Below, piece after piece: positions 39,977-56,777 of a DNA stretch of 57,929 nt; the first letter of the stretch is position 1; each line of letters starts with the position of its first letter. The stretch comes from Bacteroidota bacterium (GTDB lineage Bacteria > Bacteroidota > Bacteroidia > Flavobacteriales > BACL11): NCBI GenBank assembly GCA_036139835.1, contig JAYZYW010000012.1, positions 1 through 57,929 on the forward strand, in the 5' to 3' direction. The position numbers were made by a program, and so were the translations under genes. Under the pieces are notes generated by a model, which saw only the letters and a program-made list of their open reading frames with translations, made no database searches and was not told where the DNA came from.

Positions 39977-40261
39977 TTATACACTAACCTTATCTTCAGC
40001 CCTATTAATTAAAATAGTTTCTGAAACAGGAGATCCCATGGACCAATATTTCCATCCATTAGCATAAAGATAGATGTAATATTGTCCATCTTTCCAGAGT
40101 TCTTTCATCCCATGTTTTCTAATATACAATACGGTATTCTCAAACTCAATGGGATTATCCCATTCTTTTTTTAAAGTATAATAATGGGGTATGTCAAGCA
40201 TAGTTTTAGCAAATCTATACTCCTTACTCTCTAATAACTGTATTATATCCACTCTCGCCAC
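39977..40261 (-). CDS. Hypothetical protein (94 aa), last gene of the island operon
   Basis: The ORF lies 4 nt downstream of the DUF4338-like gene. It contains PHYYTLKKEW...YWSMG...INRAE, and I cannot place the family. Confidence 0.5.
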   Translation of the reverse strand: MARVDIIQLLESKEYRFAKTMLDIPHYYTLKKEWDNPIEFENTVLYIRKHGMKELWKDGQYYIYLYANGWKYWSMGSPVSETILINRAEDKVSV

Positions 40262-40265
40262 CCTA

Positions 40266-42251
40266 TCAAAACTCTAAACTAGTTTGATTGGTTTTCTCTT
40301 TAATAACAACTCTTGAGATATGATTTATTGGGTAATATATATCGTGCTTTGAAACCTTGTCAATGATACTTTGGTTTTTTGTTCGCATTGAAAGCCAACG
40401 ACTAATCCAGTAATCAGAAATCAATTTTGTTATTTTTTTTCCGTTCTTAAGAGAAAAAGGATACTTAGGAACTTTTTCTAATCCTAACAAATAATCTCTA
40501 TAATTTACTGCTAAAGGAATAGCATAAATAATCCTTGGGTTTTTATGATTGAGTATTTGTGCAGCATCTAAATGTAGTTTATCAAGAGATGCTCTAAGAG
40601 CTCTTAATCTAGGGTTCGCTCCTTCACCAAAAATTGAATTCACTTTTCTAAGATTCAAACGAGTTAAATAAATATCCGACAATAATTTTGTTGTAGTACT
40701 TAAATGAAAGCTACCAAAGCCTTCTGTCTTACCAATTCTAATATATTTTATACAATTGTTTTTTCTTCTATTAGAAAAGATAGATGATGGAATTTTTATT
40801 CTATTGTATTGCGAAGCATTGTCACCATACAATGATGTAGTACCCAGAAAAACTAAATTACATTTAGGATATATAGCACAACCCTTCATTCCAGAGGCTA
40901 TCTTAGTTGCTCTTGATGCATACCTATTCTTGTATTCATTAATGATTTCAGGTGAACACAATAACATGGATACTAATTTTCCGCCCAATAATAACGAATA
41001 TGGACCTTGTACTGATCCACATGTAGATATATCCGCAATCTCATTACCTACCAATGAACCTTTATGTAATCGAATTAATTTACCGATTGCATTCTTAAAA
41101 CGATTCTGCTTACAAAGATCATTTATTGAAGAAGCATCTAAATTATTGTTAAAAAATGAATCGCAATCTTTTTTTATTGATAATAATAATTGTAACCTAT
41201 TTAACCTCTTGCTTAAGTATAAATTTGTAGTAGAGACATTTTCCCAATCTATGCTGTCAGATGCTAATAATTTTTTTATTTCACCTGGATTCATAATGTG
41301 TTTTTCTTTTGCCTCTAACGACAAGACTCTTAATCTTTGTATTATGACATCATTTGGCTTTTCTATATTAGATTTAGAAATTAATTTATTGTCAATCAAG
41401 TCATCAATCTTAATCGCGTCAAACTGTTTGTTAAACATACGAAACAGCCAATTAGATGTTTTCTTATTGGGATTTGCTATAATATACTCTATTATCTTTT
41501 CATTATTCCAGCCTATTAATTTCTCTCTTACTGATAATTGAGCCATTGCACTGTTTAATTCAAAAACCCCAATTACTGGATGATTCTCAACTGCAGCGTC
41601 TCTGACTAAAAATTTCATAGATCGACCAGGTATTGGCTTAGAAACGGAAGTCCAATTAAGTCTAAAATATTTCCAAATATCTAGTAATCTTAAACCAGTA
41701 AACTCGCATTTATCTTTTTCATTTACAACCTGAACATATGGCTGTATAATTTTTTTTAATTGCAGTATTCTCTGTTTTTCATTTTTAGTTCTTCTATTGA
41801 TATTATTTAACTCCTTAGCCATCTGCTGACCATCTCTGTATAGTGAGAATATAGAAACCCACTTATCCTTATAATATTTTTTACGATGTAGTTTTGAAAC
41901 AAAATTTTGAATAGTCTCTTTTGCCATAAAAGCATCTCTTTCGATGTTTTGCTTTGACATTACAATCTGTTTTGAGGGCTTGTCGTCCGAGAAAAACATA
42001 AACCCATTTTTGTAATTCCAATTCACTAATAGCAAATCAAGTGTTAAACTTTTGGTAAACATTAATTCAAGGGAAGCATCCGAAAGATCATTAGTAATGA
42101 TTAATTCTTTCTTGCAACTAACAAGAAATTCAACTCTATTTTCTTTTTTGATGCTTCTTGAAATTTTTTTAAAATACTTCTCGAAAAGATCTTTGTTCTC
42201 AGGGAATGTGAAAGTCGGATTATATGGGATTTTTTTTATCATATTAAGCAA
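40266..42251 (-). CDS. DUF4338 (Druantia DruA)-like protein, 661 aa
   Basis: GRSMKFLVRDAAVENHPVIGVFELNSAMAQLSVREKLIGWN resembles the DUF4338 core (G..lrYLV...lG.l.fs.aaw.l..RD.wIGW). A later LVFLGTTSLYGDNASQYNRI...IGKTEGFG resembles the family C-terminal block. This is recognised from memory, not computed. Its start overlaps the upstream GHKL gene by 8 nt. Confidence 0.55.
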   Translation of the reverse strand: MLNMIKKIPYNPTFTFPENKDLFEKYFKKISRSIKKENRVEFLVSCKKELIITNDLSDASLELMFTKSLTLDLLLVNWNYKNGFMFFSDDKPSKQIVMSKQNIERDAFMAKETIQNFVSKLHRKKYYKDKWVSIFSLYRDGQQMAKELNNINRRTKNEKQRILQLKKIIQPYVQVVNEKDKCEFTGLRLLDIWKYFRLNWTSVSKPIPGRSMKFLVRDAAVENHPVIGVFELNSAMAQLSVREKLIGWNNEKIIEYIIANPNKKTSNWLFRMFNKQFDAIKIDDLIDNKLISKSNIEKPNDVIIQRLRVLSLEAKEKHIMNPGEIKKLLASDSIDWENVSTTNLYLSKRLNRLQLLLSIKKDCDSFFNNNLDASSINDLCKQNRFKNAIGKLIRLHKGSLVGNEIADISTCGSVQGPYSLLLGGKLVSMLLCSPEIINEYKNRYASRATKIASGMKGCAIYPKCNLVFLGTTSLYGDNASQYNRIKIPSSIFSNRRKNNCIKYIRIGKTEGFGSFHLSTTTKLLSDIYLTRLNLRKVNSIFGEGANPRLRALRASLDKLHLDAAQILNHKNPRIIYAIPLAVNYRDYLLGLEKVPKYPFSLKNGKKITKLISDYWISRWLSMRTKNQSIIDKVSKHDIYYPINHISRVVIKEKTNQTSLEF

Positions 42252-43659
42252 AGTACAAAGCTAATATCTTAGAGAGATATTTCTGAAATTCTTTTTGTTT
42301 TTTTATGCTTAATACATTTCTTTCTGCCTCGATCAATGCAAATATAAATAATTCAACAAATACCCTTGCCTCATCATTTCTTACTTTTGTAAATACTTCT
42401 GAGTAAATAGGATGATGTTTATTTATAGTAATAACATCGCATCCTTCATTAGTCTCATATTCGTATAATATTTCTTTTGCCAGATAAGAAAATTTCAATT
42501 GCTTGTTTGAGCGTTTCTCATTAATTGAAACCAAACATTTTGAATTTTTCCCAATAAAGTTATCATTTTCATTTATTATCCTTTTAGTCTTACTAGAAGA
42601 CTCTGATCTTAGTGAGATAAACTTTTTAATAACTCTGGAGTATAAATCCCTACTTATTGACTGGAGATCATTATTCAAAATATTTGTAATATATTTGTTA
42701 GGGCTGATACCTTGTTTTGTATTTGTTACACCAAAGAACTGATCTAATACTGGCTCAAAAACAATTTCCATCCTCCACCAATAATCATAATTTTGATGTG
42801 GCTTTACAAAATAACTTCCCCTATCTATCTCTACATCAGATCTAATGATTGACACTCCTTTGTATGATGTTATAAGCATCTTCTTTTTTATTTTATTTGG
42901 AAGATAAGACCACTCTTGAATGGGTAATTCTACAAACCTCACAAGTATTTGAGAAATAGAATTAAAATGCGGCACTCTAACGTTATATTTAAGGGTCTTT
43001 CCATATTGTTTACCTCCTGTTGGGCTCCACCCCTTTTCCATAACATATAGAGGATCCCAATGCTGTATTCTTTCATTATTTAAATATAATCGAACACTAT
43101 CTCTAAATAGAAGGTATCTGTACCTAATTGCAAAGCACAATTTTAATTTTTTGATAAAAGCATTAAAATATTTTACATCAAGCCTGTCAACCTTGGTCAA
43201 CCTTACTAATGTTCCGTTTGAATCTAATTGCTTTTTTTTTGAAACTATACTTGAATCGAGTGCTAACTTTCCATTTTTTTGAATTTCATCATAATCTAAA
43301 TAGTTATAATACTCTTTACTCCCCTTTGCTCGTGTGTAAAATTCTATTCTACGAGCTAAAGATAAGCCAGCTTGCTTAAAGCCAACCCCATAACAGCCAA
43401 TACTATTCTTTTTATCTTTTTTTGTTGTTCCTCCAAATAAAAATGCACGATCTAACTCAGTTTGCAACATTCCAGATCCATCATCTTTAATCTCTATGCT
43501 AAATACATCATCTTGTTTTATAATAGTGATATGAATATTAAATGCAAGCGCATCAATTGCATTCTCAATAATTTCTGCAAGTGATGCGCAAGCATTTTTG
43601 TATCCTGATTGACGTTGAGCTCTTAAAAAATCTTTTGGATCTACAAGGTTTCGAGACAT
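42244..43659 (-). CDS. GHKL-superfamily ATPase, MORC/MutL-like (HATPase_c_3 type), copy 1
   Basis: Bergerat-fold motifs are AEIIENAIDA (N box), DDGSGM (G1) and GCYGVGFKQAG (G2). The downstream WWRMEIVFEPVLDQFFGVTNTKQGI block is shared with the 693-aa paralog. Confidence 0.85.
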   Translation of the reverse strand: MSRNLVDPKDFLRAQRQSGYKNACASLAEIIENAIDALAFNIHITIIKQDDVFSIEIKDDGSGMLQTELDRAFLFGGTTKKDKKNSIGCYGVGFKQAGLSLARRIEFYTRAKGSKEYYNYLDYDEIQKNGKLALDSSIVSKKKQLDSNGTLVRLTKVDRLDVKYFNAFIKKLKLCFAIRYRYLLFRDSVRLYLNNERIQHWDPLYVMEKGWSPTGGKQYGKTLKYNVRVPHFNSISQILVRFVELPIQEWSYLPNKIKKKMLITSYKGVSIIRSDVEIDRGSYFVKPHQNYDYWWRMEIVFEPVLDQFFGVTNTKQGISPNKYITNILNNDLQSISRDLYSRVIKKFISLRSESSSKTKRIINENDNFIGKNSKCLVSINEKRSNKQLKFSYLAKEILYEYETNEGCDVITINKHHPIYSEVFTKVRNDEARVFVELFIFALIEAERNVLSIKKQKEFQKYLSKILALYFA

Positions 43660-43662
43660 AAT

Positions 43663-44001
43663 CTAAGGTGTAAATATTTCAATATCGTAAATTAAAATAA
43701 AAACTCTCTTCTTTTTGTATGATTGGGTAGTGTCATCATCCCATGGGGCAGGAGACTCTTTAAGTGTTACGTCTAATTTATAAGGTTGGTGTTTTTTTAT
43801 CAAATACCCTTCATCTACCAGAAAAGTGTCTATCAAATATTTATTTTTTTGATAATCTTCTTTATTCCTCACAATCTCCCAATCAATACAAATACAATAT
43901 ATTCCCTTACCTTGACTCATATAAAAAACTCCTTCTTTCAGTTCATTGAGCGTTTTAAAAGTAATTGGATCTTTTAATCTTTTAGATAATCTATTTTTCA
44001 T
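43663..44001 (-). CDS. Hypothetical protein (112 aa)
   Basis: The ORF overlaps the upstream gene by 11 nt and ends 3 nt before the GHKL start. No motif recognised. Confidence 0.5.
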   Translation of the reverse strand: MKNRLSKRLKDPITFKTLNELKEGVFYMSQGKGIYCICIDWEIVRNKEDYQKNKYLIDTFLVDEGYLIKKHQPYKLDVTLKESPAPWDDDTTQSYKKKRVFILIYDIEIFTP

Positions 44002-45208
44002 CTTCTTTAATATTTATTTGGTTTATAGAATTCACTTTGGCTTGATGGAGTGCAATGGTTTTTACAGCTTCATTCTTTGTGGTCTCTTCATCAAGATCAA
44101 TTAACTCATTTGATTTCTGATTAGCAGGATTAATCTTCTGTCCCAACTCCATTTCTGTCGCTTGCTGCAATATATCTTCAGGAAGTAGGTGGATATTGTC
44201 CTTAAGAAAATTTAAAAGCCAATCATTAAAGAAAGTATTAACTTGAACAGTTCTTTTTCCAAAACTCATTAAACCGCTAACCACTCTTGCAATACCTTCA
44301 CTATCTTCTGGACCTAGGGTTTCGAAACACTCATAAATCTCTCTTTGTTTTAGGCTTAATAAAATCGTTTCAAGGGAGTCTAGTGTTATTACATGAACAG
44401 TATAGCTAGAATCACGATAAACTTTCTCTTTGATAACCTCGGCAGTATTCGATGGAATTACAAGATACAGATGTTTATGTACCGATTTATATTTTCCGTA
44501 TTTTCCAATGCTTGAAACCTGATTTTTAATGTATGTTGGAAAATTATCAAGGTTATCATTATATGGTGCCTTTGCATCAAAAATTACATAATCATTAACT
44601 ATTTGTATCGTGTTGTCAGGAGATTTACCTTCAAATGGAAAAGAATCTATATAAGCAATTCCATGTAAATCACATAAGTGCTTAATTACTGTCTGAACCA
44701 AATCCTGATGACTCTTCCAGGTTTTTCTTTTTTCCTCCCATGCATCACTCCTTGCTTGCTCCTGCTCATTAATTCTTCTTTGGATATCATCATTTAATTT
44801 TTGCTGAGTTGCATCTAATTGATTAATAGAATTTTTATGCTCCAAATTACGAGAATTCTCTTTTTGCTCATACTTATTTACAATTTCTTGTAATTCTTTG
44901 TTGGTTTGAGCTAAGGGAGTTAAATGATTAATACGTTCCTGAAAAATCTTATTATCACTTTTTAGAGATCTAATTTCTTCATTACAGTGATCAACATTAT
45001 TTTGTTTGATAGTAAGTGTTTCTTGAAGATTTGAATTCTCTACTAGCAATCTTTCATTAATCTGCATTGCATCATATACAATTGCCTTTATTTCAGAGAG
45101 TAAAATTAAGATTGATTGCCAATTAAAAAGCCTTGTTATCCAAGATGAATTAATTACTGATTCAATCTTTTCTTTAAATACGAATGGTTTTTCCAATATT
45201 GTTTTCAT
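43991..45208 (-). CDS. RmuC-like coiled-coil protein with a putative PD-(D/E)xK nuclease core
   Basis: The N-terminal ~170 aa are heptad-rich (LQETLTIKQNN...EEIRSLKSDNKIFQERINHL...). The C-terminal PDNTIQIVNDYVIFDAKAP resembles the RmuC (R)PD...vviDAK motif. Confidence 0.6.
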   Translation of the reverse strand: MKTILEKPFVFKEKIESVINSSWITRLFNWQSILILLSEIKAIVYDAMQINERLLVENSNLQETLTIKQNNVDHCNEEIRSLKSDNKIFQERINHLTPLAQTNKELQEIVNKYEQKENSRNLEHKNSINQLDATQQKLNDDIQRRINEQEQARSDAWEEKRKTWKSHQDLVQTVIKHLCDLHGIAYIDSFPFEGKSPDNTIQIVNDYVIFDAKAPYNDNLDNFPTYIKNQVSSIGKYGKYKSVHKHLYLVIPSNTAEVIKEKVYRDSSYTVHVITLDSLETILLSLKQREIYECFETLGPEDSEGIARVVSGLMSFGKRTVQVNTFFNDWLLNFLKDNIHLLPEDILQQATEMELGQKINPANQKSNELIDLDEETTKNEAVKTIALHQAKVNSINQINIKEDEK

Positions 45209-45210
45209 TA

Positions 45211-45522
45211 TTATAGTTTTAAATTATTAGTTTCAGTTTTCTCTAAGTGATATGCGATGCCAATTGTTACAAAATCAGTTAGCATTTCAAATTTTACATC
45301 AAGCGAAGCCTCTGGAAATTGAAAAATCATAAATTGTCTCATCTTTTCAAATTTCTCTTTGATTCCATTAGAGTAATGATATGGGCGCTCGGAAAGCATT
45401 TTGAGAGCTAAATACTCATACTTGTCCTGCCCAATTTCTGAAGGACATGATGGTGTTTTTTGGACTTGTTCTTTTTCCTTCTTTAGCTGTTTTTTAGTTT
45501 TAAATCCTATTTTTTGTGTCAT
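45211..45522 (-). CDS. Hypothetical protein (103 aa)
   Basis: The ORF lies 12 nt after the DUF932-like gene and 2 nt before the RmuC-like start. No motif recognised. Confidence 0.5.
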   Translation of the reverse strand: MTQKIGFKTKKQLKKEKEQVQKTPSCPSEIGQDKYEYLALKMLSERPYHYSNGIKEKFEKMRQFMIFQFPEASLDVKFEMLTDFVTIGIAYHLEKTETNNLKL

Positions 45523-45534
45523 TGTATTGTGTTT

Positions 45535-46644
45535 TTAGTTATTAATTAATGCGGGAAATGGGCTAGGCACCTTATTTGCCATATCATAATCTCCATAAAA
45601 GAGTTCTCCTGACTGACTTTGTAGTTTATGCCCCTGAGCATCTGTTATTTGATTATTATGAGAAGCGAAATCAGTAATCACATTAATCAACTCCCAAACA
45701 CTCATTGGAGATTCAGCATTTCGCTTTTCTTTAGCACTTAACTTATACATATTAATCCCCAATTTCTTATACTCAGTCTCAGCATGATTGATTGGTAAAT
45801 ATTCATTCACTGAATGCTTGTTCACTACTGAAGTGTTTAAAAGCAAATGTCTGGCCCTCATCATTTCATGAATCGAAGCTCGTGTATTTACTGCACTGAA
45901 CACGTGTTTATCAAATGATTGGGGCTTGAAGTTTCTACTTTCTAAAGCCTCAACTACATCAAGGAAATTATTGTAAGTCGTATGGTTTAGATCCTTCATT
46001 TGACAACTTTCCTCTAGTTTATTTGCAATCATTCCATTGGTACAAATTAATCGACCTAAATAGGTTGATAGTTGCACTCCACTATTAATAGAGTTAGTCA
46101 AACTAATCCCAGAGATAAAATCCTCGCCTGCAATACCATTTACAGACCAGTAATTCTCTGGAAGTAAGGTGTTGATATTTACATTCCCAGAGTCATCGAC
46201 CGACATTTCATTTACCTCTAAATTATTTCGGTTTATAATGTTTTCGGCAAGATCCAAGAAACTTACATTAGATATTAAATCATGCTTACGTTTTTTAAAA
46301 CCAATAACATGTTTGTTTTTTGGATTCACAAGCATCAGTAAAGTCATTGTAGAGTTATTAGCAGTTTCGTTTCTAAACCACTCAACAAATTTTATTTTCT
46401 GTTTAGCTGAAGAGTAATTTTCAATTTGACTCAACATACCCCTGCTAAGACCAAGTAATTGAAATAGGTCCTTCTTGGCATTCTCGTCTAATTGTAATCT
46501 TTTACCTTTATATTCGATAAAAGAGTCATTCTTCATTTCAATGTCGGTAAGTTTAACTGGCCTTGAAATGGGTTGAGCTTTAATTGCAACATTCTTTGTT
46601 TTTTCATATTCTGTTGCTGCAAGTACTTCAAAATTATTTGTCAT
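45535..46644 (-). CDS. DUF932-like (phage/plasmid-associated) protein
   Basis: About 370 aa, with a GRLICTNGM motif resembling the conserved (v/l)C.NG block of DUF932. The size fits. Tentative. Confidence 0.55.
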   Translation of the reverse strand: MTNNFEVLAATEYEKTKNVAIKAQPISRPVKLTDIEMKNDSFIEYKGKRLQLDENAKKDLFQLLGLSRGMLSQIENYSSAKQKIKFVEWFRNETANNSTMTLLMLVNPKNKHVIGFKKRKHDLISNVSFLDLAENIINRNNLEVNEMSVDDSGNVNINTLLPENYWSVNGIAGEDFISGISLTNSINSGVQLSTYLGRLICTNGMIANKLEESCQMKDLNHTTYNNFLDVVEALESRNFKPQSFDKHVFSAVNTRASIHEMMRARHLLLNTSVVNKHSVNEYLPINHAETEYKKLGINMYKLSAKEKRNAESPMSVWELINVITDFASHNNQITDAQGHKLQSQSGELFYGDYDMANKVPSPFPALINN

Positions 46645-46660
46645 TTTAATTAATTTTATG

Positions 46661-46681
46661 AGGGGCTCTTAAGCCCCCTCT
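46661..46681 (-). terminator. GC-rich intercistronic hairpin (GAGGGGC-TCTTAA-GCCCC(C)TC)
   Basis: A 7-bp stem with one bulge lies between the RadA-bL12 stop (46692) and the DUF932-like start (46644). There is no clear U-tract on the minus strand, so its function (terminator, attenuator or processing site) is unresolved. Confidence 0.35.
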
Positions 46682-46691
46682 GGTTATTATT

Positions 46692-47801
46692 TTAGTTAAT
46701 GTAGTCTGTTAGGAAAGAAGTTGATCCATAGAATTGTCTTAATTCTACTTCAGCACCTAATTTTTCAAGTTCGGTTTTCAAAGCTTCTGCTTCATCTTTA
46801 GCCACACCTTCTTTTACTGCTTTTGGTGCACTATCAACTATGTCTTTGGCTTCTTTTAGTCCTAATCCAGTAAATTCTTTTACAAGTTTAACTACTGCAA
46901 GTTTAGAACCACCAGCAACTGCTAATATAACATCAAATTCTCCTGCTTTCTTACTAGTAGTGTCAACGACCTCAAGTATTTCAGAATCTTGTGTCGAAGA
47001 GTCAGAGATCCAATCATCAAAAGTTTCCACTGCTTGAGATGAAACAGAAGTGTTTTTCTCGACAGTTTTCTCTAAAGACTGTTGCCTCCCATTTAACTTG
47101 GTATCAAAAATGAGTTTTCCTTCATTAGAAAAATTAAAGTACAGTGGCTTGTCTGTTTCTCCTTTTCTGTTTTTTATTGCAGTTATATAGCGACTGCAAT
47201 TATTACCCTCTCCTTTAACAATTCGAAACATGCCAGTAAGCATATGTTCAATACGCTTATTTCCTTTATAGTTTCCGCCTTTGGTAATTTGAAAAACAAT
47301 AAAGAAACTGGTAAACTTCCCTTTTTTGTTATCTCCTTTCTTGTGCTTAGTAAATAGTTGTAGTAAATATTTCTCCACAACATATCTTTTTTCATTATTC
47401 TGAATCATAATAGATTCCATTAGTTCATTAATAGAGTCTATAGTAACAACATCCCATCCAAGAGCCAATTTTTCTTCTATTTCTTTTTTGGGATTTTTTG
47501 AATTAAGAAGATCCAAATAAACTACTTCTCCCATCTCAATTCTAGTGCTATACTCCTCTATATCAGGCTCTTCCATTTCGCACTGTATGTTTAATACACG
47601 TAGAGATGTTTTTGCAATTTTACCTGATATGTAAAATGCAACGCTTGACTTTCCGCTTCCAGCATCACCATATATACCATATGATGTTGCGGGCGTTAAC
47701 CCTCCCTTGTAAGATAGAAGGTCATCAAATTTTGTGTTACTTAAAATAGGCACCTGTAATTTTTTAGGCGACTTAATGTTTTTTACTTTCTTTAGTTTCA
47801 T
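46692..47801 (-). CDS. RadA/Sms-like RecA-fold ATPase fused to a ribosomal protein bL12 (L7/L12) C-terminal domain
   Basis: The N-terminal domain has [21 protein letters not shown] (Walker A), VVTIDSI, and [22 protein letters not shown]...[10 protein letters not shown], which matches the RadA pattern (hvTKeG..aGp..LEH.vD......KNRfG). C-terminal residues 288-354 read [67 protein letters not shown]. This aligns nearly position for position with the E. coli RplL CTD ([67 protein letters not shown]). Confidence 0.85.
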
Positions 47802-47849
47802 AATTATTATTATTTTGATTAATAAATAGGGTTACATAGTCCACCTATC

Positions 47850-47875
47850 CCGGGGGATCTATCAGGGGCCCCCGG
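47850..47875 (-). terminator. GC-rich hairpin/palindrome (CCGGGGG-N12-CCCCCGG, containing GGGGCCCC)
   Basis: It lies between the 99-aa gene stop (47895) and the RadA-bL12 start (47801). It stands out as a short GC-rich stretch (23 of the 29 nt at 47847-47875 are G or C) in a locally AT-rich spacer. Confidence 0.3.
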
Positions 47876-47894
47876 TTTGGTGAACTAATGATAT

Positions 47895-48194
47895 TTAAGC
47901 TATTTGTTCCGCTAAATATCTTTGCTCTAGATAGCTAGAATTTTTCCATCCATCGATAAAAAAAAGGTATTGTGTAGCATTGAACCAAGTTTCCTCTTCT
48001 GTTTTTGGAATTGGCATAAGATGTTGTGTAGAAATATCTTTTCCATCCAAAAAAATTCTTGGCGAACCTTTAATATATACTAGTTTAGCTTTTGGAAAAT
48101 CTGTCAGCACTGTGTTTTTGTACTGGCTTAATTTTGATGCTTTTTTGCATCTTTTTTGTGAGGGCTTTACTTCCTCCATCATTAATTGTTTCAT
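47895..48194 (-). CDS. Hypothetical protein (99 aa)
   Basis: The first ORF after the 454-bp spacer. No motif recognised. Confidence 0.45.
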   Translation of the reverse strand: MKQLMMEEVKPSQKRCKKASKLSQYKNTVLTDFPKAKLVYIKGSPRIFLDGKDISTQHLMPIPKTEEETWFNATQYLFFIDGWKNSSYLEQRYLAEQIA

Positions 48195-48430
48195 TGTCTT
48201 AATTTTTAAATTAATATTATGTTAATGGAGGTTAATCAAAAACGGTTATTTTTCTTCTTGTCCCATCTCTACAAAGTAGAAATTAATGGTTCCAAGCCAA
48301 TCCTGGTAACCTCCTTAATTTTTGTTTGTTCAATTATTCTTTCTAAATAAGAGATGGCTGGTCTCCTGGATGAATAATTTAAGTCAACATGTAATTAATA
48401 ACATTGCATAAATGCACTTGTTTATATACG

Positions 48431-48446
48431 CCAAATTTTAATTTGG
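48431..48446. promoter_or_regulatory. Perfect 16-bp palindrome CCAAATTTTAATTTGG, a candidate operator, with the half-site TTAATTTGG repeated at 48466-48474
   Basis: It lies in the 454-bp non-coding gap upstream of the 99-aa/RadA-bL12 genes. A related palindrome, CCAAATTTGG, lies at 51600-51609 upstream of the GHKL-PLD pair. Confidence 0.3.
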
Positions 48447-48648
48447 TTAATGTTACTTTTTTACTTTAATTTGGGAAAATTGAATGCTTTTTCGTGTAGT
48501 ATTTCAATTATTCCTTGTTATTTGCCCACTATGAAATACAGGGAGTGTGTTAGACAAAAGGTAATTTCAGTAATTTTTTTAAGCATTTGAAAGAACTAAC
48601 TCTATTTATTTGACTAAACTAATTGAAAATAGTTTAATCGGTTCATAT

Positions 48649-49485
48649 TTAAGCAGCAGTTTTTAACAATTTTTTTGACAATTGCTGCGTATATGGTGTT
48701 TGGCATGAGGGGCATGCAAAATGCTCAATAAAATGCATCTGAAACCATGCCCCAACCAACAATTCATTACAGTTTTCACATTTAACTTTAATACAAATCG
48801 GATTTGAATTTAAAAACCAAATATGCCGATAGTTATTTAACAATAAGTTTTCTTTTGATGAATACAATTCTTTTATTTTAAACTTCTTAAATCGAAATGG
48901 ATGCCAAGAAAAATCTGTAATCCATTCTGATGATTTATATTCTTTTGCAACCCACAATGGATTATATATGTAGGGCTTGTATTTTGACAAGCCTAATCTG
49001 TGCTTTATTAATGGGGTTAAAAACTGATTCTCTACTGTTACCCCATTATTTACTATTTGTACACATGCAATGTCTTTTAAGTATTCAAACTCCTCTATAA
49101 ACGGTGAAATCACTTCTGATTTTACGTTTTCTAAGATTATTGTATTCTCAAAATTTCTCTCAGCATTATAGGTCCAGTTGTAACTACCAGTAATAAGCGT
49201 TTCTCTATCAATCACACAAAATTTATTATGCATTAAAGAAGAAGTTGTAGTTACATAGATCTTACACCCTAATTCCGAAAGATAATCAAAATATTGCATG
49301 TTAATGGATGCATTTTTATCTACAATCACTTCCACATCAATACCAGCAAAGGCTTTGTTGGCAAGTAATTTTAATATGTCTGCATTTGTAAAATAACACA
49401 TTGCTATTCTGATGGAATTTTTAGCACATAACAACTCATTGTAAAGTCTTGTACTAATATTATAGAAATAACTATTAATCTTCAT
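48649..49485 (-). CDS. PLD-superfamily (single HKD) nuclease-like protein with a C-terminal Cys4 zinc-ribbon
   Basis: LMHNKFCVIDRETLITGSYNWT is an HxK(x)4D...GSxN HKD motif. The C-terminal CENC...CPSC motif suggests a zinc ribbon. Its start overlaps the upstream GHKL gene by 11 nt. Confidence 0.85.
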   Translation of the reverse strand: MKINSYFYNISTRLYNELLCAKNSIRIAMCYFTNADILKLLANKAFAGIDVEVIVDKNASINMQYFDYLSELGCKIYVTTTSSLMHNKFCVIDRETLITGSYNWTYNAERNFENTIILENVKSEVISPFIEEFEYLKDIACVQIVNNGVTVENQFLTPLIKHRLGLSKYKPYIYNPLWVAKEYKSSEWITDFSWHPFRFKKFKIKELYSSKENLLLNNYRHIWFLNSNPICIKVKCENCNELLVGAWFQMHFIEHFACPSCQTPYTQQLSKKLLKTAA

Positions 49486-51556
49486 CAGGTGCAGTATTAG
49501 TAATATTATTCATTCCATATTTTCTAGCTAATCGCTCATAATTGATACTACTATATTCAGATATCGTTGCAATTCTTTGTCTCATTTCCATTGCAGGTAT
49601 TGTTCCAGATTTAGACAATAACTGCCCCCAGGAAATAAATAAAATATCAAGTATATCAGTAGTCATATCGCCTACTCCCTCATTAATATAAAATTCTTTT
49701 ATTAAGGGATGATCTGTATTGTATATTACCTTACATCTGCCAGGAGCGATAAGTTCTGCATCAAAAATTGGTGCCGTTGTCCCTCTGGATTCTAAAGCAG
49801 TAATAAAAGGCCTTTTTTTAATATCTCTCTCCAACTCATTTACTGCTTCTGCAATGAGTTCTTTTGTTTTAGGGCTCAAATTATCTTCCTCTAAATCATC
49901 TAAATCAATTTTTTTCTTTTCTAAAATAGATGCAACCTCTTTTTTCGCATTTTCTACTCCAATTAGTAGTACATCTTCACTCCAAGTTTCTGGCGACCAG
50001 TGCTTACTATGTTTTTTAGTTACCTGTTCTGCTTTAGAAGATTCCTTTTCTCGTTTTTTAATTACCTTTTCTAATGTTTGTTCACGTAACAAGTCTCTTG
50101 ATTTATTGTCAAGTTGTCTAAGAAACTGTGGAATACCTTTGTCAGATAAAAGATCCCATATTTTCTTGTTTAGTGTAATTTGTTGTTTATTTACTGTAAG
50201 TCCAAAATATTCGTCTAGTATAGGATCAAAATCTATCTCCATTCTCCAATAACGAGATTGATTTTGTAAAACCATATTATTCTTTTTATTTTCAAAGCTA
50301 GTTCTTGTTACTTCATCAATTTGTCTATTTTTTCTCGTAATAATAGCATATTGATATTTTTTTAATGTGGTCCACCTTCCTTTCATTGGCATACCATCAG
50401 CATCGAAATCGTCAGATTGATCACCCGGCATAGCCGAAAGATTCTTATTTTTTGGATCCCAAAGACGAACAAACTTTGGATGATAAAAAGCAAACCTTAT
50501 GGTAATATTTCCCCATTCCCCTTGGCTATTTTTGATTTGGAATTTAGAGGATTCATATCTCTTGGCAATAATTCCCATATCAAAAAGTTTCTTTCTTCCT
50601 TCTGTAGTAGGTTCAAAAGGAAACCCTTCTTTTGTTCCATCATGTTTAATCAGTTTTTTATCATACTCTTCAGTAAATTTATCATTAAGTCCCCGTTTAT
50701 GGTGTAAAAATGCTTCTGGCTCTAAGAATAATGGATCTTTTGGTGCTATAATAACATTGTTGACTTTGATAGTTATTTTCTTAAAGATAGCTGATCGGTA
50801 AGTTTCTGATAAATTATCAATAATGGAACTATGAAAATTTTGTGGTGTTGAATAGCCCCAAGTCAAACCACCATATTTTTTTGGAAATTTTACATGTACA
50901 ATGGTTCCTGATGTTAAGGTTGAAATCTTTTGTTTTTCATATAGGTATTCTTGTACCTTTTTAGGAATATCTTTTTTTTCTGGTTCTGGCACCATCACCA
51001 TACCTGTTTCTTTATGAACTAAATTACCATCTTCTTTCTCTAATTCCTTTTTGTTGATAGAAATTGAATACCAATCGGTTTTACTGTTCTTTGAATACAC
51101 CTCGTATTCTTCACTTAAAAATAATGCTGAACTTGGTAATCCAAAACCATACTTCCCCAGAAAGTTTCCTTTTTTCAAATGACGATGCGTCCCACCCCAC
51201 ATAACAGCTGTTTTCAATACATCTTTAGACATGCCGGTACCACTATCGATCACAAATATATCAGTGATCTCGTTGCTTTGTGGACGGGTATAGTAATAGA
51301 TGAAGATTTGGTCAGCACCGGATTCTATCGAATTATCAACCATTTCATTTATGGCCGAACCGGTTGATTTGTATCCACTATCTCGAATACTTCCTAGAAA
51401 TTGCTGCGTAGCTACTAATGGCAACCCCTTTCTGTGAAGATTGTTTAAGTGTTTTGCATAATCTTCTTGAAGTTGTGAATTGGTTTTCTGATTTACAGAA
51501 TCCAGTATTAGATTCTTCGCTACTTCTTTCTTTTCTTTTAATTGTTTTTTTGTCAT
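49475..51556 (-). CDS. GHKL-superfamily ATPase, MORC/MutL-like (HATPase_c_3 type), copy 2 (693 aa)
   Basis: Motifs are NEMVDNSIESGA (N box), DSGTGM (G1) and GKYGFGLPSS (G2). YWRMEIDFDPILDEYFGLTVNKQQI is shared with the 471-aa paralog. Confidence 0.85.
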   Translation of the reverse strand: MTKKQLKEKKEVAKNLILDSVNQKTNSQLQEDYAKHLNNLHRKGLPLVATQQFLGSIRDSGYKSTGSAINEMVDNSIESGADQIFIYYYTRPQSNEITDIFVIDSGTGMSKDVLKTAVMWGGTHRHLKKGNFLGKYGFGLPSSALFLSEEYEVYSKNSKTDWYSISINKKELEKEDGNLVHKETGMVMVPEPEKKDIPKKVQEYLYEKQKISTLTSGTIVHVKFPKKYGGLTWGYSTPQNFHSSIIDNLSETYRSAIFKKITIKVNNVIIAPKDPLFLEPEAFLHHKRGLNDKFTEEYDKKLIKHDGTKEGFPFEPTTEGRKKLFDMGIIAKRYESSKFQIKNSQGEWGNITIRFAFYHPKFVRLWDPKNKNLSAMPGDQSDDFDADGMPMKGRWTTLKKYQYAIITRKNRQIDEVTRTSFENKKNNMVLQNQSRYWRMEIDFDPILDEYFGLTVNKQQITLNKKIWDLLSDKGIPQFLRQLDNKSRDLLREQTLEKVIKKREKESSKAEQVTKKHSKHWSPETWSEDVLLIGVENAKKEVASILEKKKIDLDDLEEDNLSPKTKELIAEAVNELERDIKKRPFITALESRGTTAPIFDAELIAPGRCKVIYNTDHPLIKEFYINEGVGDMTTDILDILFISWGQLLSKSGTIPAMEMRQRIATISEYSSINYERLARKYGMNNITNTAPDED

Positions 51557-51560
51557 AACG

Positions 51561-51749
51561 TTATTTTAATAATTTATTAAAAATAAAATCACCTATCATC
51601 CAAATTTGGAAAATAGGAGAAAGCAAAACAGAATATGCTGTATAATCTTTACTGATAAAATTTTGGATTTGGAATCCCGAGTTTATGATTTTTTTCACTT
51701 TAAAATGATACATAATAAATTGCCGCTTTGACCAATTTATCATGCTCAT
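51561..51749 (-). CDS. Doubtful small ORF (62 aa)
   Basis: It ends 4 nt before the GHKL-2 start, which is suggestive. However, its composition looks like AT-rich spacer and there is no homology evidence. Confidence 0.2.
   Translation of the reverse strand: MSMINWSKRQFIMYHFKVKKIINSGFQIQNFISKDYTAYSVLLSPIFQIWMIGDFIFNKLLK
51600..51609. promoter_or_regulatory. Palindrome CCAAATTTGG about 45 nt upstream of the GHKL-2 start
   Basis: A perfect 10-bp palindrome with the same half-site as the 48431-48446 palindrome. Confidence 0.25.
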
Positions 51750-51891
51750 CTTAGTTGTTAGATCTTCAGGATTTTCCTGTTAAAGACCCCTGATAAACTG
51801 GGTTTTTTGCACTGCAAACATACAAAAAAAAAATGAGACTACAAAATAATTTGGTGTATTTCTTACCTAAAAAATGACTTTGCTAGGTTAA

Positions 51892-54039
51892 TTAAGTGCG
51901 TGAAAATAAAGTGGTTGTTAATTCTTGTTGTGCAACTAAAATTGGCCACCAAAATGCCTCTCCTTGCCACCCTAAATCACTTTTTCCATTTTGTCTTAGT
52001 AGAATTAATGTTGGGGTTTTCATTCCATGTTTTCTTGCCAATTGTAATTCGCTTTTTGACCCAGCAGCAGTATCAGGAACATCTTCAAATCTTCCGTCAA
52101 ATCTTTTTCTACTTATATTTCTGTTAGTTCGAACAATGAGGTTTATATAATTTGTATCCTTATCTTGTTTTATTAAATGCTTTGCAAGACTTTTCATCTC
52201 ACTTAATGGTAACTGGTAATGATCCTCAAAAAGCAAACCTTCCCAAATATTATCCATAATACTACAAAACTCTGTATAGGATATTTTTATTATTGTAGAT
52301 AAATCCTGTTGATATGGGTTGTATAATAAATGTAGAATATGATCTACACGCATTGTAATTTTTTTCTGTATAGATTGTGTTTGTGTGTTAAACCCGATTG
52401 GCAAGATACGTCTGCCAGCAGTAATAGTATGAACATCTGATAATAGCAGTTTATTAGGAGAGCAAGGGATTACGCCTTCCAATTCCCTTTGTATAAAATT
52501 AATGGGACAATTTGGGCCATTTTTTTCAATCGATTCCCACAATGCATTTTCAATTCTGTGCATACTTTCTAAAACACGGTATATCCCCAAACTTGTATAC
52601 ATTCTTGTTATTGCCATATCATTAATTGGTCTTGGACCGAAACATCTTAAATGCTGTAAAACTGTATCCATTTGAAATCTTCTTGGCGATCTTCCATACC
52701 AAAAAGCAATCAAATTTTCTACACTTATTCCTCTATCTAAAATTGTACCACCCACAAAAATCATAAAGGGAGAGGAAAGTTCTAATTGTCCTGTTGCTTC
52801 ATCCATTAAGGCCTCTGTATCAGTATCAGAATTAACTGTCTGCACACAGATATAACCATCAACTAGAGCGCTTTTCACACTTTCCAACACCTTCTTAAAT
52901 GAAGGCATTTTAGTATCTGATAATTTGTTTATTGAATATTTAAAATAATCGTAATAAACTTTTATTAGTTCAGCAAATGATTTAGAGTCTAACTGTAATA
53001 AAGAAGAGTAATTTCTAAGACAGCAAGCAACTATATCTGCTTGCCAATCGTGTCTAACCTTCTGTGTTTCGGTGTGTACAACAAAAGAATATTTTTTTGG
53101 TGTTACCTTTTGTTCTTTGTCTTGGATTCTTCGGATTGAACCCCCCACTATAAAATTTAATAATGCATCCCATAACCCATCAACTCCATGAATTCGAATA
53201 TTTGGATTTAATCTAATACTTCTAGGCGTTCGTAAAACTCTTAATTCATCATTTGTTATCTCCTCAAATATGTCGTGAAAAATGGATTCGCTTTCATTAC
53301 TTGGCAGATTAAAGAATTCATCTCCTCCTATGTATTTATCGTGTTTGGGAACAAGATGCGTAAATACTGGTCTTGTTGGTGCCAATAATTGCCCATTTAT
53401 TTCCTGATATCCATCAGGCTGTAAATAAAGAGAGTAAGGAGTAGCTGTTACTAACAGAAAATCCGAGTCAGTGAGTAATTTTCTGAAAGAACTGATTTGC
53501 CCCATAATTGTTCCTACTTGTATTTCTCCACTATTTCTTCTAAAACTAAGACCGCAAAAATCAGCTTCATCATCAATAATTAAAGTTTTACTTTTTTTTA
53601 GGCGATCGTGATTACGGTATGTTCTAATTAATCTGTTAAGATTGTCATCTTCTTTCTTTACACAAAAAATAAGTTTTTTATTTTGCTGATATCCAGAAAG
53701 CACATTTACTTTCATTATATCAAGAACTTCTACTAAGTCATCTTCAACAAATTCTTTAAATTCAGACCTCAATCTTTTATATGTTTGGCTCAAAAGGAAC
53801 TTTGTTCCTTTAGTTAACACAACTATTGACTCAAAACCATTATCTAATGCTAATGCAATTATACCACAGTATGCAAATGTTTTTCCAGCTTGCACTCTAC
53901 CCAGTAACATTCCTGGCTTTCTAGGTGAGGTTTGATTTGAAAGAAGATCTTCAACAGTACCCTCAATACATTTCGTAAGAGCAGTAGTATAATTTTCTTT
54001 CTGCTTTTTATATAAGTAAAATTTTCCGGTTTTTTTCAT
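51892..54039 (-). CDS. Z1-domain protein (SF2 helicase-like P-loop NTPase)
   Basis: Motifs are GRVQAGKT (Walker A), LIIDDEAD (Walker B/DEAD-like) and VTATP (motif III). The C-terminal FVGGTILDRGISVENLIAFWYGRSPRRFQMDTVLQHLRCFGPR matches the Z1 block (L.RGlT.eGL.vsYf.R.......DTL.Q..RWFGYR). Confidence 0.8.
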   Translation of the reverse strand: MKKTGKFYLYKKQKENYTTALTKCIEGTVEDLLSNQTSPRKPGMLLGRVQAGKTFAYCGIIALALDNGFESIVVLTKGTKFLLSQTYKRLRSEFKEFVEDDLVEVLDIMKVNVLSGYQQNKKLIFCVKKEDDNLNRLIRTYRNHDRLKKSKTLIIDDEADFCGLSFRRNSGEIQVGTIMGQISSFRKLLTDSDFLLVTATPYSLYLQPDGYQEINGQLLAPTRPVFTHLVPKHDKYIGGDEFFNLPSNESESIFHDIFEEITNDELRVLRTPRSIRLNPNIRIHGVDGLWDALLNFIVGGSIRRIQDKEQKVTPKKYSFVVHTETQKVRHDWQADIVACCLRNYSSLLQLDSKSFAELIKVYYDYFKYSINKLSDTKMPSFKKVLESVKSALVDGYICVQTVNSDTDTEALMDEATGQLELSSPFMIFVGGTILDRGISVENLIAFWYGRSPRRFQMDTVLQHLRCFGPRPINDMAITRMYTSLGIYRVLESMHRIENALWESIEKNGPNCPINFIQRELEGVIPCSPNKLLLSDVHTITAGRRILPIGFNTQTQSIQKKITMRVDHILHLLYNPYQQDLSTIIKISYTEFCSIMDNIWEGLLFEDHYQLPLSEMKSLAKHLIKQDKDTNYINLIVRTNRNISRKRFDGRFEDVPDTAAGSKSELQLARKHGMKTPTLILLRQNGKSDLGWQGEAFWWPILVAQQELTTTLFSRT

Positions 54040-56210: not shown

Positions 56211-56651
56211 TTATTGAGGCGTATAAATTGTATTCCCAAAAGCATCTTTTTTATACGTCCCTTTTGTATTGCCATATGAATCCTTTTCAACAGTATTACC
56301 AAAAGCATCTTTTGAATAAGTTGATTGTGTATTCCCATAAGCATCTTTTTTCACCGTATTACCAAAAGCATCTTTTGAATAAGTTGATTGTGTATTCCCA
56401 TAAGCATCTTTTTTCACCGTGTTACCAAAAGCATCATTAGAATAAGTGGACTTTGTATTCCCATAAGCATCTTTTTTCACCGTATTACCAAAAGCATCTT
56501 TTGAATAAGTGGACTTTGTATTCCCATAAGCATCTTTTGCAACCGTATTACCAAAAGCATCTTTTGAATAAGTTGTTGTATTGGTTCCCCATTGACTAAA
56601 CCCCAATGTTGCGGTGAAGATAAAGATTAACGTAAAAATAAATTTTTTCAT
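56211..56651 (-). CDS. Secreted tandem-repeat protein with about six units of KDAFGNTV.KDAYGNT.STYS
   Basis: MKKFIFTLIFIFTATLGFSQ is a signal peptide (start at the internal Met, 56651). Highly regular 20-aa repeats follow. Confidence 0.7.
   Translation of the reverse strand: MKKFIFTLIFIFTATLGFSQWGTNTTTYSKDAFGNTVAKDAYGNTKSTYSKDAFGNTVKKDAYGNTKSTYSNDAFGNTVKKDAYGNTQSTYSKDAFGNTVKKDAYGNTQSTYSKDAFGNTVEKDSYGNTKGTYKKDAFGNTIYTPQ
56230..56580. repeat. 60-bp tandem repeat array (about 5.5 units), coding
   Basis: The unit attcccataagcatcttttttcaccgtattaccaaaagcatcttttgaataagttgattgtgt is repeated head to tail with few substitutions. Confidence 0.9.
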
Positions 56652-56777
56652 AACAAATAAAGTATTGATTAACAAACAAATATATAAATTATTTTATAAC
56701 TCATATCTAATTTATAATATATAACGGATATACTTTTGGGTGTAAAAAACACAATAGTAGTAATAGTTTTTTCATTG

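Follow-up and report, generated by a model that had tools for sequence, protein, structure and literature searches.

A gene joining a RadA-like ATPase to a ribosomal bL12 C-terminal domain in a chromosomal island of a Bacteroidota bacterium: an apparently genuine and evolutionarily young fusion

Background

In the ribosomal stalk protein bL12, the C-terminal domain (CTD) contacts translational GTPases via its helices 4 and 5 (PMC3299993 and references it cites). Also, Mizuno et al. 2019 (PMC6375957) describe bL12 domains within larger phage polypeptides, which were acquired repeatedly and have homologues without the domain. Another group of proteins is marked by the motif KNRxG, which has been described as specific for RadA and needed for its function (PMC4357459), and on which the structure-specific nuclease gp65 of mycobacteriophage D29 also depends (cited in PMC4357459). 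In this study, we analyzed a gene that brings both types of domain together. It is encoded on the reverse strand of a stretch of 57,929 nucleotides (nt), contig JAYZYW010000012.1 of the GenBank assembly GCA_036139835.1 from a Bacteroidota bacterium (Flavobacteriales, BACL11); the whole stretch is referred to as the window.

The window gene is similar to the phage proteins of PMC6375957 in that a bL12 CTD is present in a larger, unrelated polypeptide of mobile-element type, in that homologues of the carrier lack the domain, and in that the acquisition is independent. The degree of relatedness is different: phage domains are reported as ~30–40% identical to cellular bL12, whereas the window CTD reaches 85–90% at the amino acid level and 87–91% at the nucleotide level, and therefore the capture in the window is much younger. 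Unlike the phage proteins, the carrier is a RadA-like ATPase, which is not among the carriers named in the part of PMC6375957 considered here, and the gene is located in a chromosomal island and apparently not in a phage genome; the carrier family itself occurs in phage-like contigs.

With RadA/Sms (PDB 5lkm, 8rxc), the best match in both sequence and fold, the ATPase shares the RecA-fold core, the Walker A and B motifs and KNRxG. In contrast to RadA/Sms, it has neither the N-terminal zinc finger nor the C-terminal Lon-like domain and belongs to a short family of phage-like contexts. In being a core-only RecA-fold protein of phage type it resembles Sak4 (PF13479/phrog_124) and D29 gp65. The latter shares KNRxG according to the literature and the likeness rests on its description; a tblastn search against mycobacteriophage records gave no detectable similarity.

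Compared with the bL12 stalk, L10-(L12)4-6, the window protein has the same CTD and, as proposed here, would follow the same logic, in which factor-binding CTDs are joined to an oligomerizing base through a flexible hinge. Unlike ribosomal bL12, it lacks the L10-binding N-terminal domain, carries an additional C-terminal tail of 15 residues and is encoded outside the rplKAJL-rpoBC operon: native loci read rplJ-rplL-rpoB, while the fusion gene is flanked by an open reading frame (ORF) of 99 amino acids (aa) and a DUF932-like gene. New here are thus the RadA-like ATPase as partner, the young capture with a donor traceable at the DNA level and the proposed stalk-like architecture, whereas the phenomenon of embedded bL12 domains has been published before.

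Results and discussion

Both domains are encoded by one reading frame

In an earlier note, made from the sequence of this DNA alone, the gene had been read as a RadA-like ATPase fused to a bL12 CTD, with the bL12 N-terminal domain missing and the ATPase in its place. This reading is borne out. Both halves were matched significantly by Pfam, PDB and NCBIfam entries inside one unbroken ORF, no Ribosomal_L12_N domain was present, and the limits proposed for the CTD proved exact in nucleotides and residues (Table 1). The order in the 369-aa protein is ATPase (residues 1–233), helix, FDDW motif, acidic tail and bL12 CTD (residues 288–354). Judged from these data, the protein looks like the product of a genuine, lineage-specific gene fusion that is evolutionarily young. 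The authors of the note knew of no such fusion, and this part stands; their background that bL12 genes were known from viruses in stand-alone form has to be extended, as bL12 domains embedded in larger phage polypeptides had already been published (PMC6375957).

The ATPase domain is RadA-like and intact in its motifs

All ATPase motifs named previously were found, i.e. GDAGSGKS (residues 45–52), QITKGG (171–176), IEH (184–186) and KNRKG (210–214). In an alignment of 45 members of the ATPase family (A2), G45, G48 and K51 of Walker A are invariant and G50 is nearly so; in KNRKG, K210 and R212 are invariant, while N211 and G214 are conserved in at least 90% of the members. E75 is also invariant and, from its position, is probably the catalytic glutamate.

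The RadA structures 5lkm and 8rxc match residues 31–251 (E 3e-8). The NCBIfam model for RadA, TIGR00416, was matched with E 3.8e-12 and 45.7 bits (cut-off 403), and this match spans model positions 82 to 276 of 454. Its start at position 82 and the absence of cysteine from residues 1–73 show that the C4 zinc finger of RadA is missing. Likewise, the Lon-protease-like domain was not found, since the match ends at position 276 and the C-terminus of the window protein consists of helix, acidic tail and bL12 CTD. In an AlphaFold 2 (AF2) model, residues 1–233 have a predicted local distance difference test (pLDDT) score >90, and the best fold match is the RadA helicase domain of S. pneumoniae (8rxc/5lkm; E 4e-13; root-mean-square deviation 3.2 Å over ~241–245 columns), with KaiC coming next. 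The Pfam family KaiC (PF06745) matches residues 25–219 with 26.5 bits (cut-off 26.6), and 32 of the 45 family members match it at E ≤0.001; unlike the duplicated KaiC, the ATPase here is a single domain. The Sak4 profile AAA_24 (PF13479) scored 17.4 bits, below its cut-off of 27, and phrog_124 (E 1.3e-5) covers residues 38–134 only. When compared with PADLOC-DB 2.0, the fusion protein had no significant defence match; weak partial matches were obtained with MTase_II (5e-5; linker and CTD) and IetA (0.003; P-loop).

Fold and factor-binding face of the bL12 CTD

A profile search, suggested earlier as a check of the CTD, identified Ribosomal_L12 (PF00542) at residues 289–354, covering profile positions 1–66 of 67 with 91.8 bits (cut-off 25.9; E 3.4e-26). 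The CTD had been described as near-canonical, and indeed residues 288–354 give an ungapped alignment to E. coli bL12 (CTD structures 1ctf and 3j9y; E ~1e-20), with 46 of 67 positions identical. Even the NCBIfam equivalog model for L12, TIGR00855, was passed with a score of 87.0 (cut-off 84.4). A model of residues 276–369, built with native bL12 sequences, superimposes on 1CTF with 1.1 Å over 67 columns. The N-terminal dimerization and L10-binding domain of bL12 (PF16320) gave no match in the protein, where residues 1–287 are ATPase and tail.

Conservation was assessed with 78 native flavobacterial CTDs, in which 51 positions are conserved in at least 90% of the sequences. Of these, 47 are kept in the window CTD. 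The equivalents of E. coli K65, V66, I69, K70, R73, L80, K81, E82 and K84 in helices 4 and 5 all show the flavobacterial state. Thus, as judged from the residues, the fold and the putative factor-binding face are intact, which is compatible with binding or sequestration of translation factors by the CTD and also with a decoy role.

The CTD was captured from an rplL gene

The captured piece comprises ~215 nt of rplL and has sharp limits, extending from the first CTD codon (46940/46941) to ~7 nt past the native stop codon. It encodes exactly the bL12 CTD, so that both limits coincide with those of the structural domain. Over the domain, nucleotide identity is 87.4% and 89.6% to native genes of marine Flavobacteriales (contigs L113 and L115, respectively) and 91.3% to contig L112, which is described below. 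At the amino acid level, identity to flavobacterial bL12 is 85–90%, and the closest native proteins, with 90%, include P0311 and P0372 ('Flavobacteriales bacterium TMED123'). The best GTDB species representatives are also Flavobacteriales, with 72–82% nucleotide identity. A very recent capture from a sequenced genome was rejected in view of these 72–82% and of the 87–90% found for metagenomic natives. The window is part of a low-GC Bacteroidota chromosome encoding a type IX secretion system (T9SS) sorting domain, sucC and pyrC, and the rplL donor was probably the host lineage itself. The G+C content at third codon positions (GC3) of the CTD is 7.5% and within the range of ribosomal-protein genes, with rare codons somewhat enriched.

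At the 3′ end, native genes read ...GAATTAAAGTAATTCT... where the window reads ...GAATTAAGACAATTCT.... The native stop codon has been turned into CAA, and therefore 15 extra residues are translated. An alternative in which the CTD was inserted within the 3′ end of the ATPase gene, the tail being the old ATPase C-terminus, was rejected because the acidic tails of the relatives are unlike the window tail. A separate expression of the CTD was considered as well: no in-frame ATG was found near residue 288, and a sigma-70-like match at 46966–46937 was no better than expected from shuffled sequences.

A second contig carries the same 3′ module

The sole close relative of CTD plus tail is protein P0287, encoded on L112, a metagenomic contig of 691 bp (ENA ERZ27259039, k141_727844). 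L112 starts with the end of a gene bearing an acidic ETAEEPEAE repeat. An rplL leader follows and then an rplL-like gene in full length; over 443 nt, the identity to native L113 is 90.7%. Next come a read-through tail nearly identical to that of the window, the hairpin (Table 1) and the start of the DUF932-like gene, whose initial 55 nt do not differ from those in the window; rplL-like gene and 3′ module together occupy nt 171–590 and 591–691. In the rplL-like gene, codon 21 is an in-frame TAG, and helix 5 is altered at two invariant positions (D to G and I to V). As acidic C-terminal tails are present on L10 of some Flavobacteriales, the upstream fragment may be rplJ. In a side observation, L10 of Chryseobacterium and other Weeksellaceae (L031–L089) was found to have an acidic C-terminal extension of 25–30 residues rich in Glu, Pro, Ala and Thr, which is absent from L10 of the other Flavobacteriales loci examined.

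L112 may represent a related island with a captured rplJ′-rplL fragment, from which the window fusion arose by deletion; it may result from recombination between the chromosomal rplL and an island copy; or it may be a chimeric low-coverage assembly. Shared and private CTD substitutions of window and L112 are interspersed, a pattern which favours none of these readings. Whichever of them applies, L112 provides independent confirmation for the window gene's 3′ junction. The suspicion of a chimera, raised in the earlier note, is thereby removed for this side of the CTD, while the 5′ junction between ATPase and CTD was seen in the window only. Since L112 joins rplL to island sequence, integration at a specific site in the 3′ end of rplL was also considered, the CTD then being a replacement copy borne by attP; it was rejected as main reading because the island contains no tRNA gene and no second copy of the CTD, no integrase was matched among the ORFs scanned and the chromosomal flanks are unrelated.

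The carrier family and its C-terminal extension

Searches using only the N-terminal part, and HMMER run exhaustively over 1.84 billion cluster representatives, yielded many relatives of 240–410 aa with 27–37% identity. The closest one (P0121), 72% identical, is a fragment. Among 286 retrieved proteins that were parsed, 78 match the ATPase and the remaining hits match bL12 CTDs, and none matches both; the bL12 domain is lacking in all 78 ATPase relatives examined. A two-domain relative was not missed among the best 150, because it would score >200 bits and the weakest of the 150 scored 98 bits. None of the Pfam families exceeded its threshold for the ATPase relatives, with KaiC, AAA_25, AAA_24 and DnaB_C all giving weak matches. 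The family members consist of the RecA-fold core with KNRxG, without zinc finger and without Lon domain.

Where a genomic context exists, the ATPase relatives are located on phage-like contigs rich in small ORFs (L001, 96 kb; L108, 40 kb). On contigs L108–L111, the ATPase relative P0154 is followed 1.5 kb downstream by the gene for a homologue of the DUF932-like protein (28% identity over 314 aa, E 7e-30), and L001 likewise has a DUF932 gene. A DUF932-like gene is thus a frequent partner of the ATPase family, and the two constitute a conserved module of the mobile-element kind.

At the C-terminus of the relatives, a long helix and the motif [ED]xFDxhF precede an acidic disordered tail. In the AF2 model of the window protein, the helix spans residues 234–275, and pLDDT is <50 from residue 273 on. 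Since family homology extends to ~residue 286 and the relatives end in the same helix, motif and tail, the CTD has been attached where the ATPase naturally ends. It starts at residue 288, right after the acidic tail, and the family's own tail would therefore act as hinge.

The contig with the closest relative, L009 (ENA ERZ23498697, 1057 bp), showed a peculiarity: P0121 is cut off at residue 155, and nt 825–1057 are unrelated and end in GGGGTTTTGGGGTTTTGGGG, a ciliate-type telomere repeat. This contig is probably chimeric.

Other proteins with bL12 CTDs outside the ribosome

Two further groups, TIR proteins with bL12 CTDs (P0021, P0023, P0054) and, from Nannocystis/Myxococcales, multi-CTD proteins (P0001 etc.), resemble the window protein in being non-ribosomal and in having at least one bL12 CTD, placed C-terminally to or beside an enzymatic or effector domain. 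They differ from it in their partners, which are TIR, TPR or none, in belonging to other phyla, in CTDs with only 45–57% identity to the window CTD and in the lack of a RecA-fold ATPase. The TIR proteins (P0021, P0023, P0041 and P0054, the last at L116 7001–8713) carry one or two C-terminal bL12 CTDs. P0054 is encoded in an array of TIR paralogues bearing RCC1/WD40 or TPR instead, beside a trypsin-like protease and a Band_7 protein; the array looks like a conflict system in which the bL12 CTD is used as one module among several alternatives. The multi-CTD proteins (P0001–P0008, P0140–P0151 and others from Nannocystis/Myxococcales and metagenomes) comprise 320–1060 aa with 4–8 tandem bL12 CTDs and are annotated as 'ribosomal protein L7/L12'.

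A smaller piece of the domain was noticed in IMG/VR, where phage ORFs of 127–342 aa (L090–L095) contain the bL12 helix 4-5 hairpin motif only and are otherwise unrelated proteins. The same helix 4-5 segment is matched by the PHROGs of unknown function 26927, 2546, 35727 and 5819.

Possible function and alternative explanations

With its ATPase motifs intact, the protein is most likely still the nucleotide-dependent DNA motor of its family. RadA and KaiC relatives form rings. By analogy, the fusion protein would probably be a ring oligomer as well, each subunit of which would carry, on a flexible acidic tether, a CTD with a helix 4-5 face unchanged from the flavobacterial consensus. Such an assembly would copy the layout of the ribosomal stalk, with an oligomerizing base, a hinge and several CTDs. 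It could bind stalk-docking proteins, most plausibly the translational GTPases EF-Tu, EF-G, IF2 and RF3, and couple or recruit them to the ATPase. Precedents for grafted bL12 CTDs are given by the TIR proteins and by the phage proteins (PMC6375957). We regard the chances that the protein is a functional stalk mimic as evenly balanced, with stalk-docking partners other than GTPases included in this estimate.

If the CTD is functional, the gene would be a natural experiment in which the factor-docking module of the stalk was placed on another oligomeric scaffold, with a donor traceable at the DNA level. One could then test directly whether EF-Tu, EF-G, IF2, RF3 or immune effectors docking on the stalk can be recruited or titrated in vivo by free bL12 CTDs in multivalent form. 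A functional fusion, along with the phage bL12-domain and TIR-bL12-CTD proteins, would support the view that the interface between stalk and factors is a recurrent target in phage-host conflicts.

The following observations weigh against a functional stalk mimic. Positions conserved in at least 92% of the 78 native CTDs are changed by K294A, L310F, E347K and A348L. On the window-specific branch, polarized with L112, L113 and L115, 6 replacements are opposed to 4 synonymous codon changes, and the ratio of nonsynonymous to synonymous substitution rates (omega) is ~0.5, compared with ~0.08 among native rplL CTD pairs. According to these sequence comparisons, constraint on the CTD is relaxed or altered, and an omega of ~0.5 is compatible with neutrality at 13 changes. 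Also, a search for the two-domain architecture, as recommended in the note, retrieved no second ATPase-bL12 protein from ~15 billion proteins, including 5.8e9 clusters, 1.84e9 representatives, GTDB species genomes, IMG/VR and JGI metagenomes; an annotated phage collection yielded weak hits or host contamination only. The fusion is a singleton, and its conservation cannot vouch for a function. Its product is absent from the protein collection in the annotated form and with ten alternative starts, of which the GTG/TTG variants were likely mistranslated as V/L. The neighbouring ATG-start genes that were looked up are all present there as NCBI proteins, and in the public record the fusion ORF may carry a pseudogene annotation or may not have been called at all. 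Finally, the fusion protein matched no PADLOC defence model.

The main rival explanation is a young chimeric gene with a passenger CTD. A piece of rplL, or a whole copy trimmed by deletion, would have been fused in frame by chance and would slowly decay without a selected role, the ATPase working or not as its CTD-less relatives do. The singleton status and the missing gene product fit this explanation, as do an omega on the own branch that is indistinguishable from neutrality, the substitutions at otherwise invariant sites and the loss of the stop codon that led to a disordered tail. The module on L112 fits as well, where a full rplL-like gene with TAG at codon 21 and two helix-5 replacements is what would be expected of a decaying captured copy. 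On the other hand, the ORF is unbroken throughout its 369 codons, both limits of the capture match those of the structural domain, and the GTPase-binding face appears untouched. The GC3 of 7.5% indicates that the donor codon style is mostly kept and, thus, that the event is too recent for decay to be judged. In addition, the independent grafts of bL12 CTDs on TIR proteins and on phage proteins (for the latter, PMC6375957) argue for a usefulness of the grafted domain. Overall, we hold a passenger CTD to be a serious possibility, though on the unlikely side. If the fusion is such a neutral accident, it would still be a clean, datable case of a piece of a core ribosomal gene that was captured and fused, and also an annotation trap, because the fusion passes the NCBIfam L12 equivalog cut-off.

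The functional stalk mimic can be worked out further. A ring showing ~six CTDs might serve a mobile element or defence island as a free stalk mimic which captures GTPases or soaks up bL12-docking effectors or toxins, such as Cami1-like RelE or stalk-dependent ribosome-inactivating proteins (RIPs). We consider this specific form rather unlikely. If true, the interface of stalk and factors would be interfered with or monitored in a manner not described before, with the TIR-bL12-CTD proteins as a signalling counterpart.

A lower probability is assigned to a decoy or bait in inter-genomic conflict, an idea raised in the earlier note; here the CTD would mimic the stalk either to intercept bL12-docking attackers of translation or to sense them and trigger the ATPase and neighbouring nucleases. 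The gene does sit among defence-type genes, and TIR-bL12-CTD proteins occur in an array where their TIR paralogues bear other, sensor-like domains instead. According to its primary description, Cami1 is reportedly captured by the ribosomal stalk. The structure of Cami1 bound to cyclic tetraadenylate (cA4) on the 70S ribosome (PDB 8phj) holds a bL12 CTD chain that matches our CTD model; Cami1 is a CARF-RelE effector cutting mRNA at the A site (PMC11229360), and an L12-stalk-dependent RIP has been reported (PMC12737465). However, the ATPase and its immediate neighbours match no known defence model, the ATPase relatives are found in phage-like neighbourhoods of replication/recombination type instead of defence operons, neither a type III CRISPR locus nor a RelE-like gene was seen in the window, and the gene is a singleton, so that we consider the decoy improbable.

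An artefact of assembly or recombination, in which the ATPase-CTD junction is not present in the organism and either the assembler was misled by the rplL-like repeat of 200 nt or a rare rearrangement took place, would agree with a 5′ junction (46941–46976) seen in this window only, with L112, where the CTD segment is joined to other upstream sequence (rplJ-like and full rplL), and with the chimeric-looking contig of the nearest ATPase relative, L009, and its terminal G4T4 telomere repeat, but is highly improbable, as the window CTD deviates by 9–13% from every native rplL found and has own substitutions, hence is no misplaced ribosomal copy, as an rplL stretch of ~215 nt with island sequence on both sides would need two chimeric joins, as the join is in frame and at the natural end of the ATPase tail, and as the downstream junction is independently confirmed by L112.

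Features of the locus and neighbouring genes

The coordinates of the features are listed in Table 1. The accessory or defence-like island assumed for the surroundings of the gene was recovered: ~14 kb contain a DruA-like gene, two genes for MORC-like HATPases, a PLD nuclease gene, a Z1/helicase gene and several ORFans. The order is DruA-like, HATPase_c_3, 112-aa, 405-aa coiled-coil, 103-aa, DUF932-like, fusion, 99-aa, PLD, HATPase_c_3 and Z1/helicase. Ordinary chromosomal genes border the island, with a pterin dehydratase at one end and lipoproteins at the opposite end. It has neither a tRNA gene nor a CTD repeat; no integrase match was obtained among the ORFs scanned, and no structural phage genes were detected. 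Part of the island recurs on L114, a 2.1-kb contig from another sample.

Table 1. Features of the fusion gene and its surroundings in the window (positions in nt, counted from the first letter of the window)
Feature	Position	Strand	Basis
Whole fusion gene	46692..47801	(-)	369 codons plus stop, ATG start; ORF list, Pfam/PDB/NCBIfam matches to both halves
RecA-fold ATPase core, residues 25-232, RadA/KaiC-like	47106..47729	(-)	KaiC and RadA PDB matches, AF2 model
Walker A GDAGSGKS, residues 45-52	47646..47669	(-)	Family alignment A2
Walker B strand VVTIDS, residues 118-123	47433..47450	(-)	D122 invariant in family alignment
KNRKG, residues 210-214, RadA-type KNRxG motif	47160..47174	(-)	Family alignment
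Family-typical C-terminal extension, residues 234-287: helix, ETFDDWI (259-265), acidic disordered tail (266-287)	46941..47102	(-)	Model and relatives
Captured bL12 CTD, residues 288-354	46740..46940	(-)	Domain match, fold model, nt homology to rplL
CAA (Gln356) where native rplL has the TAA stop	46734..46736	(-)	Alignment to native 3′ ends
Read-through tail of 15 residues, 355-369	46695..46739	(-)	Sequence; disordered in model; nearly identical tail in L112
G+C-rich hairpin GAGGGGGC..GCCCCTC between fusion gene and DUF932-like gene	46660..46680	(-)	Sequence; kept with few changes in L112
DUF932-like gene	45535..46644	(-)	PF06067 weak, E 0.004; phrog_1362 E 8e-5; homologue near ATPase relatives
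99-aa gene upstream of fusion gene	47895..48194	(-)	44% identity to ORF upstream of P0121 in L009
Co-oriented island, ~14 kb	39977..54039	(-)	Pfam, PADLOC and NCBIfam matches

The hairpin between the fusion gene and the DUF932-like gene was not called in a simple terminator scan, since no T-run follows it. PDB sequence searches with the 405-aa and DUF932-like proteins gave nothing significant, and for the 405-aa, 103-aa and 112-aa genes no shared neighbours were found on the phage contigs. An RmuC-like nature of the 405-aa protein found no support in Pfam, PHROGs and NCBIfam.

The DruA-like gene matches PADLOC DruA1 with E 2e-130, and the other Druantia genes (DruB–E) are missing. At 40266–43659, the DruA-like gene and one of the MORC-like HATPase_c_3 genes overlap by 8 nt; the pair may be a two-gene variant and not canonical Druantia. 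The genes for PLD nuclease, HATPase_c_3 and Z1/helicase form a trio at 48649–54039 with weak similarity only to MzaB/MzaC of the MZA system, and may constitute a related but distinct defence cassette. Outside the island, a secreted protein of 154 aa with ~9 repeats of the form STYSKDAFGNTVKKDAYGNT is encoded at 56211–56675.

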